Under the pieces are notes generated by a model. That model worked only from the letters and a program-made list of their open reading frames with translations. It did not search any database and had not been told where the DNA came from. This document shows, in pieces, positions 5,567 through 11,412 of a DNA stretch of 64,000 nt. Origin of the DNA: Candidatus Iainarchaeum sp. (GTDB lineage: Archaea; Iainarchaeota; Iainarchaeia; Iainarchaeales; UBA10219). The DNA is taken from contig JAGVWE010000004.1 of the NCBI GenBank assembly GCA_018304425.1, positions 219,189-283,188 on the forward strand. The letters are read 5' to 3'. A program made the translations under genes and the position numbers. The first letter of the stretch is position 1. Each line of letters begins with the position of its first letter.

Positions 5567-7277
5567 CTCCATCCCTCCAGCGCCTCATTCACATCCCCAA
5601 AAACCTTTCCCGCTCCGTTCTTTCGGAGCAGTTCCCTCAACTCCCTTCCCTTGTCTTGGGGCGGCAGCACCCCGACCGCGGTCAAGCCCGCCCGCCGGGC
5701 CGCCTGCTGGTCGTCTGGCGTGTCCCCGAAGTAGGCCCCAGCCGCCGCAGGACCTCCTTCAACCCCCACGGGCCTGGCTTGGCCTTTCCGGGAGGCACGT
5801 CCTCCATGCACACGACCTCCGCGAACAAGTCCCGCACCCCAAAGCGTTGCAGCGCAAACTCGGCTTCCGCTCTCGGTCTGCCCGTGAACACCGCCAGCCG
5901 ATACCTTTCAGCCAACCGCTTCAACCCTTCCTTGTCCGCCAGCAGTTTCTCGTTGGCAATCAAGCCGCCAAAGTTTTTGCCGAGGTAAAACCCCTGGAAC
6001 ACTCGCTTCACCGTCGCCAGCTCCGCTTTCTTTCCCTTCCGCTTGGCCAGCTCGCGGCTCAGCTCCCAGTCGCTGTTGTAGCCGCCCTCGTTCTTCAACG
6101 CCTGGATTTCGCCGGCGCTCGCCTTCTTCCCGGTCAACCGTTCCACTGTCAACCGGATGGCCTCGCGGTAGGATTTCCGCACGTCGACGAGCACTCCATC
6201 GATGTCGAAGACGAGCACGGGCTCGGCAAGTACGCCCTTCAGTTCGCGCACGAAGCGTTTCATCTGCTTCCGCGTGCCAATCGTCACCCGACAGCAGCCC
6301 GCCAACAACGGGTAACCGGAGCGGTCGCGCACCAGCACCCCGCGCTCGCGCAGCTTCCGCACCACGAACTTCACCTGCGACCCCAGCCGGAGGATGAAGG
6401 CGTTGGCTTTGCCGAACCGCGCTTCCACACCCAACCGTTTCAGGGCCTTCCGCAGCCAGGCCCGGCTCTTCCCCACTTCCCGGACATAGGCCCGCATGTA
6501 GGCCAGGTCCCCCAAAGCCGCCAGCCCAGCCCGCAAACCGGCTCCGCTGACCGGATACGGCCTTGCAGCGGCCGCCAGCCTTTCGATGACGGGCGCCTGT
6601 GCCAAGGCATAGCCCATGCGCAGCCCCGCCAAGCCGAAGGCCTTGGACAGCGTGCGCAGCACCAGGAGGTTGCCATATTTCCTGAGCATGGGGACCAGGG
6701 TCTCCCCGCCGAACTCGATGTAGGCCTCATCCACCAGCACCAACGCGTTCGGCGCGCGGCGCAGCAGCCGTTCAACCTGCTTGCGCGTGACCGTGGTTCC
6801 CGTCGGGTTGTTGGGCGAGCACACCACGATTGCGGCCGTCCGCGCGTTCACCGCCCCGAGCACGCGCTTGAGCGGGAAAGAAAACCCTGCGTCGTCGTCC
6901 AACAACACTTCCCGCACTTTCAATCCCGCCAGCTTCGCGTACAACTCGAACGGTGAGTACGTCGGAACCGGGAGCACGACTTCGCCGCGCGGCCTCCGGA
7001 TGGCGTCGAAAATCTTGTCGATGGCCTCGTCCGAGCCGTTGAACAGCAGGACGTTCTCCGGCCGCACCTTGCAGTAGGCCGCCACCTTCTCCGCCAGCCG
7101 CCGGCTCTCCGGATAAGCGGCCACCACTTCAGCCGTCAGGCCCCGCAACGCCTTCACCACCTTCGGGCTCGGCCCCACCGTGTTCTCACCGAAGTCCAGT
7201 CGCAGCTTGCCCAGCCTCCCGGCTATGGGCGGAACGTACTTTTCCGCTTCCATGACCTCTCCTCGCATTCCCATCAT
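5563..7277 (-). CDS. hisC: Histidinol-phosphate aminotransferase fused to a HAD-superfamily phosphatase (likely histidinol phosphatase); frameshifted near 5735-5741
   Basis: HisC motifs NGSDEAI, SPNNPTG, VDEAY, RTLSKAFGLAGLRMG, then HAD motif I (FDIDGVLVD), TGRP and KP.P. HAD motif IV (YFGDTPDD..AA..AG) is in a different frame that ends at TGA 5563-5565. Confidence 0.88.
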
Positions 7278-8551
7278 TTCCGTTTCACCTCGAACCGTTT
7301 CTCCACCGACTTCCTGTGCGCGTCCAGCCCCTCTTCCCGGGCCAGGCACGCGACGGCCGGCCGCAAGGCCTCCAAACCCCTGCGCGACAGCCTTTCCACG
7401 TTCTGGAACCGCATGAACTCAAGCACGCTCAACCCGGACGAGAACCGGGCCGCGCGCCCGGTCGGCAAAACGTGGTTGGTGCCGCTCGCATAGTCTCCGG
7501 CCGCCTTGGGACTCCAAGGCCCCAGGAAAACCGTGCCCGCGTTGACGAGCCCATCCACAAACCGTTGGCCGAAGCCCCAGACCTCGGCGTGCTCGGCCGC
7601 GAAGTCGTTGGCGAACCGCAGGACCTGTGCCTCGTTTTTTGCGAGGACAATCAGCCCGTTTCGTTTCAGCGACTGCCGTGCAACTTGGCCGGTCGCCAGT
7701 TCCCCCAACTGCTGCTTTAACTCCTTTTCCACTTGCCGCGCCAGCTTCCGCGAAGTCGTGACCAGCACGCTGCGCGCGTTGGGCTCGTGCTCGGCGGAAG
7801 CCAAGAGGTCGGCGGCCATCCATTCCGGGTTCCCGCTTTTCGCCAGCACCAGCAGTTCGGTGGGCCCGGCCAGCAAGTCGATGCCGACCTCGCCGTAGAC
7901 GAGCCGCTTGGCCGCCGTGACATACGCGTTTCCCGGCCCGAAAACCTTGTCCACGCGTGGAATGCTTTCCGTGCCGTACGCCATCGCGGCAATGGCTTGC
8001 GCGCCCCCAACCTTGAAGATGCGGTCGGCTCCCGCCAGCAGGCAAGCAGCCACGATCAAGGGATTCGCTTTCCCGTCCTTCCGCGGCGGCGTGCACACGA
8101 TTTTCTCGCGCACGCCCGCCACCTGCGCGGGCACCAGGTTCATCAGCGCGGTCGATGGCAGCGGATATCGCCCGGCAGGGACATAGACCCCGACGCGCTC
8201 GATGGGCCGCACGGTCTGCCCCGCGTATATGCCGTTACCGAAGCCTTTTGCCCAGCTTTTAGGCAGGGCCGCCCGCTGGAAATCCGCGAGGTTCTTCGTC
8301 GCGCACTTCAACGCGCTCCGCTGTTCCTTTGTCAGGCCGCGCAGGGCCGCGCGTTTCTCGGCCGCGCCCACTTCCAGTTCGTTTGCCGATAGCGTGACCC
8401 GGTCGAACCGCCGCGTGAATTCGCGCAGGGCAGCGTCGCCGCGCCTGCGCACGGCCTCGAGTATTTCCCGTGCCGCTGGCTCCGCTGCGCGGTTCGCTTC
8501 CGCTTTCGGTTTCACCAACCGTTCATAGTCCGTTCGCGAAACCCCGGCCAA
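7274..8551 (-). CDS. hisD: Histidinol dehydrogenase (start uncertain)
   Basis: GDAALREFTRRFD, VGVYVPAG, GGAQAIAAMAYGTESIP.VDK.FGPGN.YV..AK, ID..AGPTE, AEH, GDYASGTNHVLPT. The only early start is a TTG without an SD. Confidence 0.94.
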   Translation of the reverse strand: MAGVSRTDYERLVKPKAEANRAAEPAAREILEAVRRRGDAALREFTRRFDRVTLSANELEVGAAEKRAALRGLTKEQRSALKCATKNLADFQRAALPKSWAKGFGNGIYAGQTVRPIERVGVYVPAGRYPLPSTALMNLVPAQVAGVREKIVCTPPRKDGKANPLIVAACLLAGADRIFKVGGAQAIAAMAYGTESIPRVDKVFGPGNAYVTAAKRLVYGEVGIDLLAGPTELLVLAKSGNPEWMAADLLASAEHEPNARSVLVTTSRKLARQVEKELKQQLGELATGQVARQSLKRNGLIVLAKNEAQVLRFANDFAAEHAEVWGFGQRFVDGLVNAGTVFLGPWSPKAAGDYASGTNHVLPTGRAARFSSGLSVLEFMRFQNVERLSRRGLEALRPAVACLAREEGLDAHRKSVEKRFEVKRK

Positions 8552-8603
8552 CTCGACCCGGGTGAACTAAACCCCTTCTGTCAGTCTTGCGACTAGTCGT
8601 CAT
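8523..8603 (-). CDS. 26-codon upstream ORF overlapping the hisD start (MTTSRKTDRRGLVHPGRVGRGFANGL); may be the true, frameshifted hisD N-terminus
   Basis: ATG at 8603 is preceded by a strong SD GGAGGT (8614-8619). One His codon at 8562-8564. Stop TGA at 8523-8525 lies inside hisD. Confidence 0.5.
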   Translation of the reverse strand: MTTSRKTDRRGLVHPGRVGRGFANGL

Positions 8604-8700
8604 AACCCAACCCACCTCCAAGAGAAGTTGTTGGGCTACCCCCAATGATGGAGTAACCCGTGGTGAACTAACTCAACCCGTTCGGTTGAAGAAAAGAAAG
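8552..8700 (-). promoter_or_regulatory. Putative structured his-operon leader
   Basis: Minus-strand hairpins with G-U pairs: TTCAACC/GGTTGAG; GGGTTACTCC...GGGGTAGCCC; CCCAAC-ACTTCT/GGAGGT-GTTGGG, which sequesters the SD; AGTC-GCAA-GACT. Also a direct repeat TTAGTTCACC(A)CGGGT and clustered CAC/CAT triplets. Confidence 0.55.
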
Positions 8701-8773
8701 GGCCGGTGCGGGGAATTGAACCCCGTTCAGAAGGTCCACAGCCTTCTATCCTAACCGATAGACCACACCAGCC
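8701..8773 (-). tRNA. tRNA-His (GTG), with genome-encoded G-1 and C73
   Basis: G-GCTGGTG/CACCGGC-C acceptor stem, anticodon arm GAAGG-CT-GTG-GA-CCTTC, T arm CGGGG-TTCAATT-CCCCG. CCA is not encoded. Confidence 0.96.
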
Positions 8774-8969
8774 ATTACGCCTTTTTACAAAAGGTGTGCG
8801 AAAACGTCCCATGCGCGGCATGGGACTGCCCTCAGTATTGGCTTCGCTAAAAGAGGGACAAGCGCTGAGAATAGTTTCATAGCTAGCCAAGTCAAGTAGG
8901 GCGTTATCGCCGGCTATGAAGTAAATTCCTTCTCATAGGTTAATCGCTCACATATCTTCCGTCTGCGGA

Positions 8970-8980
8970 GTTTAAATAGG
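8970..8980 (-). promoter_or_regulatory. Putative TATA box for the tRNA-His/his transcript
   Basis: Minus-strand TATTTAAA, the clearest TATA-like element upstream of tRNA-His. It implies a leader of about 170 nt before the tRNA. Confidence 0.45.
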
Positions 8981-9496
8981 TTATGGTTTGCCTTCCGCAG
9001 CCGCTTGTTCCTGTCTTTCTTGCAGCAGCCGCTGGGCCGCCTGGATGCCGGCCATCAGTTTAACTGGTTCCCTGGCCGTCAACACGAGTTTCTTGAAGTG
9101 CCCGGACTTCTTGTGCACCAACATGGACTGCTTGTGCTGGGAAACGAAGTAAAGCGTGTCTAGGCTCATGCGGACGCCCCACCCGATGTAGAACGGGACG
9201 CGGTCCACGAGTTCCGCCGACGAAATGTCTTGCACCGGCACCCGGTACGAGTAAAACGGCAAACGGATCTCCAATGCCTGCTCGGTGGCCACGAACCGCA
9301 TCAAGTACAACCAATAAAAGGCCAGGACTACCAGGCCCAGCGCGGCCAGGCCCGGCGCCAGTGACTCGATTCCCACGGCCTGCTGGGAGAGATAGTACAA
9401 CAACGCGGCCAACGCCGCGACCAACGCCAACCAGAAGCCCTTGAACGCCCAACCCACCGGCGCCTGCTCCTCGTACAAGACCCGTTCAACGGCCAT
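8981..9496 (-). CDS. Hypothetical membrane protein (2 TM helices plus a bacterial PH-like soluble domain)
   Basis: Two hydrophobic helices followed by LEIRL...RVPVQDISSAE...GWGVR, a pattern typical of bPH-type membrane proteins. Confidence 0.75.
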   Translation of the reverse strand: MAVERVLYEEQAPVGWAFKGFWLALVAALAALLYYLSQQAVGIESLAPGLAALGLVVLAFYWLYLMRFVATEQALEIRLPFYSYRVPVQDISSAELVDRVPFYIGWGVRMSLDTLYFVSQHKQSMLVHKKSGHFKKLVLTAREPVKLMAGIQAAQRLLQERQEQAAAEGKP

Positions 9497-9640
9497 GCCC
9501 TATTCAAGTGCGAACCCGTATTTAATGGTTTTCGCGCAGCCTTTTTGGCTTCGCCAAAAAGCCTGGGGGAAAACGCTTCCTGCCTTGCAGGAGACAGGCG
9601 AACCAGCGAAGGCACGGCAGAAGCCGGAGAAAAAGGAAAG

Positions 9641-9752
9641 TGCACGGGGCAGGATCCGAACAGCCTTTTTACAAAAGGCTGGCGAAAACGTCCGAATGCA
9701 ACCCCTTCTCGCTTCGCTCGAAGGGGTGGAATGCACGGGGCAGGATTCGAAC
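9641..9752. repeat. 21-bp direct repeat of the tRNA-Leu 3' end flanking a ~70-bp palindromic insert
   Basis: TGCACGGGGCAGGATCCGAAC (9641-9661) versus TGCACGGGGCAGGATTCGAAC (9732-9752), one mismatch. Confidence 0.85.
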
Positions 9753-9815
9753 CTGCGAAGGCACTAAGCCACTGGCCCCTGAAGCCAGCACGTTTGGCCG
9801 CTTCGTTACCCGTGC
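9732..9815 (-). tRNA. tRNA-Leu (CAG)
   Basis: GCACGGG/CCCGTGC-A acceptor stem, anticodon arm CTGGC-TT-CAG-GG-GCCAG, long variable arm, GCAGG-TTCGAAT-CCTGC T arm. Confidence 0.95.
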
Positions 9816-10056
9816 AGCTGACGAAGCGTCAGCTGGCACCGCATACGTCGTCCCATCTCGCTGCTGCTCGATGGGACATAAATATGCCGTGCTTTGCCTG
9901 CTTCAAACCTAAGAGGCTGGGAAAGGGTTTTTATGGCTTGCCATTGAAGAAAGGCAGTGGCATACGTGGTATGCCACCTTTTCCCAGGGCTTCGTTGTCC
10001 ACTTCGTGGACGACGCCACCAAAAGCGAAGCTTTTGATGGTTGTAAAAAGCCCTAG

Positions 10057-10130
10057 CGACCCCGTTGGGATTTGAACCCAAGCCTAGAGCTCCGGAGGCT
10101 CTTATGCAATCCAGACTACACTACGGGGCC
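10057..10130 (-). tRNA. tRNA-Arg (CCG)
   Basis: GGCCCCG/CGGGGTC-G acceptor stem, AGAGC-CT-CCG-GA-GCTCT anticodon arm, TTGGG-TTCAAAT-CCCAA T arm. Confidence 0.95.
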
Positions 10131-10151
10131 AACCCCTTTTGCCGGGGCAAG

Positions 10152-10225
10152 CGCACCCACAGGGATTTGAACCCTGGCCGGCAGCTCCGCAAGCTGCTAT
10201 GCTATCCTGGCTACACTATGGGTGC
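10152..10225 (-). tRNA. tRNA-Arg (GCG)
   Basis: GCACCCA/TGGGTGC-G acceptor stem, GCAGC-TT-GCG-GA-GCTGC anticodon arm, CAGGG-TTCAAAT-CCCTG T arm. TATA-like TTTTAAAA about 30 nt upstream. Confidence 0.95.
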
Positions 10226-10335
10226 AACGATACAGATTAACGGAGGGGGCTTTTTTAAAACCACTCCTAGGCGGAATATTTATGTCCCACCACAGGTGGG
10301 ACGACATAGGGCGTCCAGCCGCCACCTTCGTCCGG

Positions 10336-11412
10336 CTAAATCCAGCCCTGGCCCCCGCCTTTCCGTTCTTCCGGGGGAGCGGGCTCTTCGTCGTAGGCCG
10401 TTACCCGGTTGCTGTTCAGCAACAACTGGGTGTACGCGAACTTGAGGGCCTTGTCCAATAAGACCGTGTAAATGATGAGCAGCGGCTTGAAAACGAATTT
10501 TGTGAGCAAGTAGAACATGCTCGTGAAGACGAAGGCCACGACGAACCAAAAGTTTTTCTCGATGACTGCGAAGAGGGGCACCCGGGCTTTCAGGGTGGCG
10601 AACGCGCTCTGTTTTTCGGCTTCGCTGGGTTCCACGGGTTTCTTGGCTTTCAGCCTTTCAACGACTTCCTGTCGGTAGGCCTTGGAGCCGAGTTCGAGTT
10701 TCTTGGCCTGCACTTTTTTGGCGAACGCCGCAACCCTCGGGTCCAGGCTTTCCCCGAGTTTCTGGTATTCCTCGGTTTCCAGGAGGCCGTCCAAGAGCAT
10801 GCGCTGGTTGATGATGACAAGGCTCGCGTTTTCTTCCACCAATGCCCGGGTGCCGGCGCCGACCAGGGAGTTGGAGACCACAGCGGACTCGAAGTCGTTC
10901 AGGTAGGTGGCGGGGTTTCCGTTCACTGCCAGGGCAATGGAGGCGAACACGCCGAAGCTGATGAGCAGCGCCACGTAGCCGTATCCCGCGGTGATGGCTT
11001 TCACCAACGCGTTCCCCTTCACCGTGGACAAATACCAGTAAACGATTTCAATGAAGAGGAAGACGCTCAAGGCGTAGAACGTCAGCGGCCAGGCGAAGTC
11101 CACGAGGTTCTTGAACAGGAAGAGGGCGGCAAACCCTCCGAGCACCAGTCCCACGGCGGAGGCCAGGTGCATGTTCTCCTTTTCCTTGACCTCCGAAAAA
11201 GAGGCCACCAGGGCCAGTGTGAGGGGAAACAATAGGAGAAACGCGTAGAAGGGGAGCGACAGCACCTTGTCGAGGTTTTCTCCCAGCTTGCCGAGCATCA
11301 CGATTTCGGAGAGCTTCACGCCGGAAGCGTTGAGGGAAAACATCCACGCGAAAACCGTCAACGCAATCAAGGCAGCCAAGACAAGGGTTTCCGCGTCCAC
11401 CTTTAATGCCAT
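10336..11412 (-). CDS. Hypothetical multi-pass membrane protein
   Basis: 358-aa ORF with about six hydrophobic helices and a helical soluble loop. Starts 4 nt after map, with genome-typical codon usage. Confidence 0.8.
   Translation of the reverse strand: MALKVDAETLVLAALIALTVFAWMFSLNASGVKLSEIVMLGKLGENLDKVLSLPFYAFLLLFPLTLALVASFSEVKEKENMHLASAVGLVLGGFAALFLFKNLVDFAWPLTFYALSVFLFIEIVYWYLSTVKGNALVKAITAGYGYVALLISFGVFASIALAVNGNPATYLNDFESAVVSNSLVGAGTRALVEENASLVIINQRMLLDGLLETEEYQKLGESLDPRVAAFAKKVQAKKLELGSKAYRQEVVERLKAKKPVEPSEAEKQSAFATLKARVPLFAVIEKNFWFVVAFVFTSMFYLLTKFVFKPLLIIYTVLLDKALKFAYTQLLLNSNRVTAYDEEPAPPEERKGGGQGWI

Follow-up and report, generated by a model that had tools for sequence, protein, structure and literature searches.

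The histidine (his) operon considered here lies on the minus strand of a 64,000-nucleotide (nt) stretch of contig JAGVWE010000004.1 from Candidatus Iainarchaeum sp. (the window; positions count from its first letter), and a gene for tRNA-His is located in its leader, upstream of the first gene hisD. Most likely, this leader senses histidine, with the tRNA-His gene embedded in it, by means of a chain of His-codon +1 frameshift gates. From the sequence we consider it probable that the gating of entry into the his genes occurs by a programmed +1 frameshift that senses His-tRNA and has a geometry like that of the bacterial prfB gene. We observe short repeated units, conserved together with their reading frames, and genes without start codons in relatives, and from this we infer the frameshift, its dependence on His-tRNA and a coupling between successive stages. 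In the following, G000 is the genome of the window, other G numbers are the genomes compared, L numbers are loci and X numbers are other sequencing runs.

The proposed gate is a 15-nt unit that is conserved in a strand-specific manner in the archaeal order of the organism (Iainarchaeum/Diapherotrites), with the consensus AGTGATTTACTTCAY and a looser form RGKGAT-NNN-NTT-CAY. It consists of a Shine-Dalgarno (SD)-like block, 3 nt, an NUU codon and a His codon, and is located inside short ATG-initiated open reading frames (ORFs). Units recur in the stretch from tRNA-His to hisD, and every his operon that begins with hisG or hisE has them at its head. The hisD gene itself is present in 39 of the 196 genomes of the order and in 40 of the 215 genomes of the class. 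Within loci of ±1.5 kb, tRNA-His is co-oriented upstream of hisD in 7 of 37 genomes, a count that leaves out two partial hisD pieces at contig ends (G156 and G034); when the upstream region was extended to as much as 6 kb, seven further genomes showed tRNA-His, then a hisS-like gene and then hisD. The his-operon heads of 38 genomes (182,262 nt) were scored with a position weight matrix (PWM) of the unit; a score of 14 or more was reached by 47 matches on the operon strand, but by none on the opposite one. The matrix was trained on 41 regular-expression matches and the operon-strand count is therefore partly circular; the opposite strand is the real control. A HisD scan of metagenomes supplied 80 unrelated hisD loci (identity at most 49%; the family of G000 holds only G000), and none of these had a unit upstream of hisD on its strand. 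They contained one match on the hisD strand, located downstream of hisD, and five on the opposite strand. On the operon strand the triplet that follows RGTGA-N5-TT was CAC in 16 and CAT in 16 of 56 cases, with any other triplet at most three times, and on the opposite strand CAT followed in 1 of 19 cases. Since CAC and CAT are equally frequent at this position, it is the histidine codon itself that is conserved, with a free choice of the synonym.

These counts also bear on a reading of the unit as DNA. It contains a partial dyad, GTGA-N6-TCAC, and could be an operator at which a histidine-responsive repressor binds at several sites of the leader; the most symmetric copies read GGTGA-N6-TCACC, and two to four copies are present per leader. 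We regard this as very unlikely. The strong matches all lie on the operon strand, the last base is C or T equally often, which keeps the His codon but breaks the dyad, and many copies are without the left half-site (AGGGGT, AAGGGAT, GGCGGT). Furthermore, the copies hold fixed reading frames within ATG-initiated ORFs, and the left half is complementary to the 3' end of 16S rRNA. Control after transcription initiation is favoured, because shut-off of a shared promoter, such as repression of the leader promoter, would also lower the output of the sole tRNA-His gene, unless this gene has its own promoter.

Examples of the leader ORFs, each closed by a stop codon, are MNPTFFPLKQSDLLHN, located ~22 nt after a TTTATAAA box, MNAKSEYIHL, MKSELLHIV and MRRDLVHKKRI; in the relatives TTTATAAA or TTTAAA stands ~22 nt before the leader ATG. 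The leader ORFs of the relatives have a single His codon each, and their stop codon follows 1-19 codons later. In the window the stop is 3 codons past the His codon in the first leader ORF, called L0, which resembles the mini-ORF MRRDLVHKKRI of G048 and G052, and 12 codons past it in a second short upstream ORF (uORF2), which overlaps the start of hisD. An ORF with an SD, an ATG and a unit at the hisD junction, like uORF2, is also present in G092, G090 and G178. A search with the leader pattern gave 18 matches, of which 14 were archaeal (Candidatus Iainarchaeum, Diapherotrites or 'archaeon', with a leader of the MNPTFFP type) and the other four were bacterial chance matches. Many leaders (L163-L180) begin with a box AATCCCAC-N5-YCCCAC, which there encodes MNPTFFP; the box is also found without ATG in G172 (L061) and after tRNA-His in G214 (L067), and may be an RNA or DNA element instead of, or besides, a peptide. 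Separately, the 0-frame tails of the leader ORFs in L010 (G039), L011 (G013), L004 (G019) and L028 (G092) are rich in Cys and Gly and similar to each other, ending for example in LHMGCDGCGGCGDPPY or LHGCDGCPGCGPPQ. These tails, which lie upstream of tRNA-His, may represent either a genuine small peptide or an RNA structure rich in GC.

A unit adjoins the first his gene in 15 cases from nine families, and in each of them this gene opens in the +1 frame exactly at TTC-AYN and stays open for 97-758 codons; a stop comes after 3-17 codons in the 0 frame and after 3-50 codons in the +2 frame. The gene entered is hisD in G000, G039, G013, G092, G090 and G178, hisG in G004, G035, G047, G119, G126, G122 and G172, and hisE in G048 and G052, and NCBIfam confirmed the gene identity for four of these ORFs. 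In 10 of the 15 cases there is no ATG, GTG or TTG upstream of the junction. This is clearest in G092, G004 and G048, where initiation at the first downstream start would remove conserved N-terminal residues. Five of the genes (in G000, G039, G092, G048 and G172) have a frame that opens one codon before the junction, at TAG-TTC. In G000 the hisD frame is +1 relative to uORF2 and open for 429 codons, with TTG 8551 as the first canonical start, and the predicted trans-frame product would be MTTSRKTDRRGLV continued after the junction by TRVELAGVS. In the segment that separates the last unit from the first hisD ATG, G039 and G013 differ by 6 synonymous and 4 nonsynonymous changes in the hisD frame, against 1 and 8 and 1 and 7 in the other two frames. 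Together with an in-frame insertion in a variant of the window locus (X9, see below), this pattern lends support to translation in the predicted frames.

The rival that has to be weighed here is leader-peptide sensing without a frameshift. Pausing at the single His codon of each ORF would then act on the folding of the RNA, on its occupancy by ribosomes or on transcription termination (at the T-rich tract behind tRNA-His, for instance), while hisD would start at TTG 8551 and the genes of the relatives at near-cognate codons or at GTG or TTG. Short ATG-initiated ORFs with a His codon near their end are indeed the conserved feature, T-rich tracts follow several leaders as well as tRNA-His, alternative hairpins predicted in G000 involve an SD, and a GTG or TTG near the junction is possible in G000 and in 5 of 15 relatives. 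What this explanation does not account for is that whatever follows, ORF or gene, is without exception in the +1 frame (15 of 15), that two thirds of the gene-entry cases (10/15) have no upstream start, that TTC is invariant and that an SD-like block lies 3 nt upstream. Conserved alternative hairpins were not found. A ribosome stalled at CAC 8564-8562 would moreover cover TTG 8551, which would be the wrong sign for a biosynthetic operon. Leader-peptide sensing alone therefore seems unlikely.

Where a leader holds more than one unit, the frames continue in the same direction. In 12 of the 14 archaeal loci found with the leader pattern, the leader ATG sets frame 0 for the first of two units, the second unit is in frame 1, and the his gene is one +1 step further on; the exceptions are L163, which has one unit, and L177, in which the second unit has CTC instead of NTT. 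In G039 three successive +1 steps are needed and all three units are in register. Because the repeated arrangement of SD-like block, NUU and CAY always has the next frame at +1, frameshifting is favoured over a terminator/antiterminator switch or direct pairing with tRNA.

The tRNA-His gene is part of this path. A leader ORF with a unit is located 79-205 nt upstream of tRNA-His in all 12 leaders in which ARAGORN called a tRNA-His, and the +1 frame from the His codon of the first unit is open through the whole tRNA-His gene in 10 of these 12 (58-124 codons, in DNA of 34-56% G+C; the failures are G160 and G165). The 0 and +2 frames are open through tRNA-His in none of the 12. The path thus enters tRNA-His in a stop-free frame, even where just one of the three frames is open. 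G015 provides an extra case, with a +1 path of 169 codons through an intron-split tRNA-His that was not called by ARAGORN. After tRNA-His, the path meets the next unit in frame in G000, G013, G092, G090 and G019. Elsewhere it ends at the next start, by TGATG in G148, TAA-ATG in G151, TAA plus 1 nt in G159, a TGA 4 nt before ATG in G150 and ATGCTGA in G015, and ATGA overlaps are found at the end of the path in G090, G092 and G019. Repeats are present in two loci. In G015 (L046), ~700-130 nt upstream of hisD, tRNA-His is split after the anticodon region by a long insertion that contains tandem repeats, translated as NLFQKGLRKTAR four times, and the +1 frame is open across tRNA and insertion. In G214 (L067), five tandem 21-nt repeats encoding M(S/G)LGEKK are located 130-250 nt downstream of tRNA-His, at the start of the gene that follows it, probably a synthetase-like gene.

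The composition of the unit fits that of a +1 shift site. The 16S rRNA of G000 ends with GGATCACCTCCT, of which GGTGAT is the exact complement, and SD pairing is used in this organism, since GAGG peaks at position -11 before its ORFs. The SD-like block of the unit (RGKGAT) is located 3 nt upstream of the P-site codon and is proposed, by analogy with prfB, to act as the stimulator of the shift. NUU followed by C is invariant, with CUU, GUU or AUU as the P-site codon. G000 contains tRNA-Leu(GAG) and tRNA-Val(GAC), and these P-site codons are read by GAN anticodons, which explains the invariant TTC because anticodon positions 35 and 34 can pair with the U and C of UUC. The His codon in the A site would be slow under histidine shortage.

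We propose that the gate works as follows. The SD-like block (GGUGAU, AGGGGU or AAGGAAU) would pair with the 3' end of 16S rRNA and would be followed by the 3-nt spacer, NUU in the P site and CAY in the A site. With an ample supply of charged tRNA-His, the ribosome would decode CAY without delay and the short ORF would terminate a few codons on. With charged tRNA-His in short supply, the A site would stay empty and the P-site tRNA, with its GAN anticodon, would re-pair from NUU to UUC, helped by the SD-like pairing, so that the ribosome continues in the +1 frame. This is the correct sign for a biosynthetic operon, because slow decoding of His gives entry and prompt decoding gives termination. 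In the window, unit 0 in L0 would send ribosomes into the 93-codon frame through tRNA-His and unit 1, from where they would be handed over to uORF2, and unit 2 in uORF2 would deliver them into hisD at TTC-ACC (8566-8561).

Several observations weigh against this proposal. Firstly, a GUU codon, as in units 1 and 2, would re-pair at 2 of 3 anticodon positions after the shift, less well than CUU. Secondly, the chain of G000 is interrupted: having crossed the SD hairpin, the +1 frame of unit 1 meets a stop (TAG 8595-8593) five bases past the ATG of uORF2, so that a fresh start at ATG 8603 is needed, and for unit 1 there is no separate start codon behind tRNA-His, as the frame 8890-8636 contains no ATG, GTG or TTG from tRNA-His to its His codons. 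Thirdly, TTG 8551, 12 nt after the junction, could serve as an ordinary start of hisD, and a shift is then not strictly required; because of this the case rests on the relatives. There, a GTG or TTG is located 12-24 nt upstream of the junction in 5 of the 15 gene-entry cases, and G173 is an exception in which hisD has a normal SD and ATG downstream of the units (the +1 frame of its units 2 and 3 ends at a TGA that overlaps the hisD ATG). The genomes are kin, and the counts are thus not independent events. Units 0 and 2 of G000 have modest scores (13.7 and 16.6), and single matches that strong occur elsewhere in the genome. Unit 1, at 18.6, has the second highest score across the 1.48-Mb genome. 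Other strong matches (C7:5341, C6:101267 and C7:4875) do not have leader-like contexts, and one of them is an ordinary gene start. Lastly, amino-acid constraint was not found on the relay segments or on the spacers between L0 and tRNA-His, where synonymous and nonsynonymous changes were alike in all three frames; in the relay segments, openness of the frame is the only thing conserved. SD-masking or alternative hairpins were likewise not found as a conserved feature in G092, G090 and G039.

The position of tRNA-His in the path allows a further and more doubtful step, which we put forward tentatively: one transcript may have two fates, yielding mature tRNA-His when histidine is plentiful and histidine enzymes when His-tRNA is scarce. 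In plenty, the leader ORF would end early, the tRNA would fold and be cut out, and the his message would remain untranslated. In scarcity, a +1-slipped ribosome would translate through tRNA-His and keep it unfolded and uncut, and overlapping stop and start codons would then let translation move on to the following gate or cistron. With two to four His-codon gates in a cascade, the response would be steeper. A competition with tRNA processing had already been suggested for this leader from the sequence alone, and it fits the conserved open frame through tRNA-His.

That sequence-only reading had described the leader of the window as a possible new attenuator or T-box-like switch, and its observations are confirmed. 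It placed tRNA-His co-oriented ~150 nt upstream of hisD, where ARAGORN, Rfam and Pfam give a spacer of 148 nt, and it noted the short U-rich tract 3' of the tRNA, which is TTTCTTTTCTTC at 8699-8688. The open frame 8890-8636 through tRNA-His, with in-frame ATGs at 8821 and 8812 and the ending VHHGLLHHWG, is present as reported; 3' of unit 1 this frame contains CAC, then CTC-CAT-CAT (8653-8645) and the stop. CATCAT was said to sit at the tip of a hairpin, and GGGUUACUCC/GGGGUAGCCC is predicted to fold in this way (74 nt, -27.1 kcal/mol, z-score -2.45). A competing hairpin was described as burying an SD, and CCCAAC...GUUGGG is indeed predicted to pair GGAGGT (161 nt, -60.8 kcal/mol, z-score -2.87, equalled by 1 of 200 shuffles), but this SD leads to the 26-codon uORF2 and not to hisD. 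The predicted hairpins at 8606-8643 are a local feature, and any role they have is a putative one. As for the proposed histidine sensing, ribosomes meet His codons, tRNA-His is embedded and the arrangement is conserved in relatives, but neither a T-box nor a classic attenuator is supported. The relatives have the open frame and one His codon per unit, but no run of His codons, and the hairpins were not seen in them. The short His-containing ORF 8936-8904 upstream of tRNA-His had been missed.

In a switch made of RNA, T-box-like or otherwise, uncharged tRNA-His would have to pair directly with CAU or CAC and with UGGG in the leader. The tip of the predicted hairpin in G000 carries CAUCAU and then UGGG, which is complementary to the C73-CCA end, as the sequence-only reading had pointed out. 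CAUCAU-UGGG is absent from the relatives, and the X9 variant changes the TGG right after CATCAT to CTG and has an 18-nt insertion in the hairpin arm. The loop of the weak hairpin of the unit itself is not a conserved His codon. A comparison with Rfam (cmscan of 7000-11000 on both strands, E ≤ 10) listed only tRNAs and chance matches: neither T-box (RF00230) nor His_leader (RF00514) gave a covariance-model match at this threshold, and no other cis-regulatory family did. A T-box-like switch is thus scarcely credible.

The features of the leader and the operon are collected in Table 1.

Table 1. Features of the his leader and operon in the window (bounds of operon genes are mechanical ORF limits).
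Feature	Position	Strand	Basis or remark
TATA-like box TATTTAAA	8971-8978	minus	34 nt before first leader ATG
Leader ORF L0, MRRNLLHSRR	ATG 8936, stop TAA 8906-8904	minus	upstream of tRNA-His; holds unit 0
Unit 0, AGAAGGAAT-TTA-CTT-CAT-A	8933-8915; His CAT 8918-8916	minus	PWM score 13.7
+1 frame from unit 0	8917-8636; stop TAG 8638-8636	minus	93 codons without stop
tRNA-His(GUG)	8772-8700, to 8773 with encoded G-1	minus	ARAGORN and Rfam
T-rich tract TTTCTTTTCTTC	8699-8688	minus	directly 3' of tRNA-His (sequence)
Unit 1, CGGGTTGAG-TTA-GTT-CAC-C	8680-8662; His CAC 8665-8663	minus	just 3' of tRNA-His
Two overlapping hairpins, GGGUUACUCC/GGGGUAGCCC and CCCAAC..GUUGGG	8606-8643	minus	predicted
uORF2 (26 codons), MTTSRKTDRRGLVHPGRVGRGFANGL	ATG 8603, stop TGA 8525-8523	minus	SD GGAGGT 8619-8614, 10 nt before ATG
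Unit 2, AGAAGGGGT-TTA-GTT-CAC-C	8579-8561; GTT 8567-8565, His CAC 8564-8562	minus	PWM score 16.6
hisD reading frame	8566-7274	minus	opens at TTC 8566 right after TAG 8569-8567
hisD	8551 (TTG)-7274	minus	Pfam Histidinol_dh, E 3.5e-149
hisC-HAD fusion	7349-5682	minus	Pfam/NCBIfam
hisB	5572-4967	minus	Pfam/NCBIfam
hisH	within 5399-4371	minus	Pfam/NCBIfam
hisF	4366-3611	minus	Pfam/NCBIfam
hisA-hisI fusion	3614-2622	minus	Pfam/NCBIfam
hisG, long form	2676-1741	minus	Pfam/NCBIfam
hisS	1595-342	minus	Pfam/NCBIfam; last gene of operon

The TATTTAAA box is a candidate promoter of the leader transcript with a putative activity, and the leader ORF of G015 is preceded by the same box at an equal distance. 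Starting from unit 0, the +1 frame crosses the spacer, the entire tRNA-His gene and unit 1, and contains TTG 8890; the two other frames stop after 0 and 4 codons. Unit 1 is read as VELVH in the frame that arrives through tRNA-His. The tRNA has C as its discriminator, the CCA end is not encoded, and among the 39 tRNA genes found in G000 there is no second one for His; the T-rich tract behind it is a possible archaeal terminator or pause site. A module of ~50 nt (8779-8828, minus strand) abuts the 5' end of tRNA-His and comprises a GC hairpin GTCCCATGCCGCGCATGGGAC, GTTTTCGCA and a palindrome CCTTTTGTAAAAAGG. Copies with 88-98% identity are found at C1:75229-75277, C1:37090-37142, C7:53858-53907 and other places. 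Of the 39 tRNA genes, six have the palindromic box within the 32 nt before their 5' end (Thr-CGT, Val-GAC, His, Ser-GCT, Ala-CGC and Val-CAC), and four others have it, inverted, just downstream (Arg-CCT, Lys-CTT, Arg-CCG and Gly-CCC). The box is nearer to the tRNA than a standard TATA box allows and may act in processing or in transcription, and the frame that crosses tRNA-His runs through it.

The genome of the window is archaeal (1.48 Mb, 59% G+C), with a small-subunit rRNA that scores 1327 bits with the archaeal model versus 1023 with the bacterial model. On the minus strand the order is tRNA-Arg, tRNA-Arg, tRNA-Leu, a 171-amino-acid ORF, tRNA-His and the complete histidine operon hisD-C-B-H-F-AI-G-hisS. 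With hisS closing the operon, tRNA-His, its synthetase and the pathway genes are clustered together. A hisG-hisC fusion occurs in relatives of family f24. The 171-amino-acid ORF (8981-9496, minus strand), located between tRNA-Leu and the leader promoter, has no match in Pfam or NCBIfam.

A last explanation denies any regulatory function and takes the frame breaks as decay or assembly errors and the units as remnants of duplication. In its favour, TTAGTTCACC is present twice, 101 nt apart, and the organisms, as symbionts with small genomes, lose genes, with hisD kept in only a fifth of the order (the 39 of 196 genomes given above). The break is nevertheless located at the same His codon in nine families, whose HisD proteins are only 42-51% identical to that of the window, and the remainder of each gene is intact. 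The leader frames are no assembly artefact, because independent assemblies from other runs carry the same letters: compared with the window, X6 has 0 differences over 8300-8757, X10 has 0 over 8562-8718 and X8 has 1 over 8569-8867. In the X9 variant contig the indels are multiples of three, with the 18-nt insertion mentioned above and a 3-nt insertion that leaves uORF2 in frame, and a GGT to GAT change yields the family consensus RRDLVH. Absence of function is thus extremely improbable. Some candidates were rejected outright. Insertion of an element like a miniature inverted-repeat transposable element between the two TTAGTTCACC copies was dropped, as a comparison of the spacer 8552-8700 with G000 showed no repeat, only a 22-nt chance match (E 1.2). 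An alternative code with TAG as a sense codon fails in that read-through of TAG 8569-8567 still meets TGA and no start codon. Transcriptional slippage was rejected for lack of a homopolymer at the junction, and quadruplet decoding by a special tRNA-His because the sole tRNA-His found has a 7-nt anticodon loop. As a separate observation, short contigs of X6 and X10 connect the opening 21 nt of L0 (8936-8916) with the initial 21 nt of tRNA-His (8774-8754) and have, over 8754-8936, 73 other letters where the window has 141, which means that a related organism of the same habitat has a shorter spacer between L0 and tRNA-His.

The closest likeness of the proposed gate is to prfB, the gene for release factor 2, which in bacteria is autoregulated by a +1 frameshift at CUU UGA C with an SD-like element upstream. 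Both have a short 0-frame ORF and a main ORF in the +1 frame, in prfB without a start of its own (10 of the 15 genes here are without an upstream start; G000 has TTG 12 nt past the junction), a P-site NUU able to re-pair one base on, and an SD-like block 3 nt upstream. In both, by this analogy, the shift would be favoured when the factor that reads the A site is scarce, giving negative feedback. The differences are that the A-site codon of the his leader is the sense codon CAY and not a stop, that the sensed molecule would be His-tRNA and not a release factor, and that the product is a biosynthetic enzyme, with two to four units in series, an archaeal host and a tRNA gene in the path.

Other leaders of amino-acid operons resemble this one in purpose more than in construction. 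The hisL leader of Escherichia coli contains a run of seven consecutive His codons. As in hisL and the His_leader family, a short leader ORF is present here and translation at His codons would report charged tRNA-His and control the his operon. The units have one His codon and not a run, no conserved terminator/antiterminator pair was found, and the proposed read-out is a change of reading frame and not transcription termination. The tail of the tRNA-His-crossing frame in G000 has 4 His in 9 codons, yet it is without a start codon after tRNA-His. A T-box also senses tRNA charging for an amino-acid operon and involves the cognate codon, but the present leader has no Stem I, specifier loop or T-box sequence, and its His codon would be read by the ribosome within an ORF. 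To our knowledge, the known controls of amino-acid operons are leader-peptide attenuation, T-boxes and repressors, all bacterial, and we know of little on the sensing of amino acids at the level of translation in Archaea.

Recoding elsewhere provides partial parallels. In yeast Ty1, +1 frameshifting occurs at CUU_AGG_C with a slow 'hungry' codon in the A site, according to the available part of a 2016 recoding review (PMC5009743). There too, CUU in the P site slips to the overlapping codon while a slow sense codon waits in the A site. The slowness results from a rare tRNA and not from a limiting amino acid, and the shift fixes the Gag:Pol ratio, without metabolite sensing and without an SD-like stimulator. 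Frameshifting within the leader peptide gene of an amino-acid operon is described for E. coli pheL, where the authors, in the part of the paper drawn on here, termed it apparently incidental (PMC3082878); the pheL leader controls attenuation, and the downstream gene there has its own start. For Archaea, the portion of a 2021 review available to us names the -1 frameshift of Saccharolobus solfataricus fucA1 as the only programmed frameshift reported (PMC8211752). This is likewise an archaeal cellular gene in two frames joined by recoding, but it uses -1 shifting on an A-AAA-AAT heptamer, has no link to amino-acid sensing and concerns a single gene of one species; histidine is not mentioned in that portion. 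The 2016 review, in the part cited, states that no starvation ('hungry codon') frameshifting was known to be used for a trans-frame protein (PMC5009743). Full-text literature searches and the accessible parts of these two reviews, supplementary files aside, gave no report of frameshifting at a His codon in a his operon.

If the proposed gating is true, it represents a novel mechanism for detecting a shortage of histidine, in which the logic of prfB would have been re-invented with an aminoacyl-tRNA as the sensed molecule and in which gates can be chained. The device is small, with ~60 nt around unit 2. A tRNA gene could then be situated within a leader that gauges the charging of that very tRNA, and could itself be translated along with this leader. 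If the more tentative reading with two fates of the transcript is true as well, this would be the first amino-acid sensor that works by frameshifting at a sense codon. It would likewise be the first instance in Archaea of amino-acid control based on the ribosome, and the first of a tRNA gene under selection to serve as an open reading frame too. For annotation, the proposed gating implies that gene callers will truncate such hisD, hisG and hisE genes or call them pseudogenes, so that the biosynthetic capacity of DPANN-type archaea is under-estimated.

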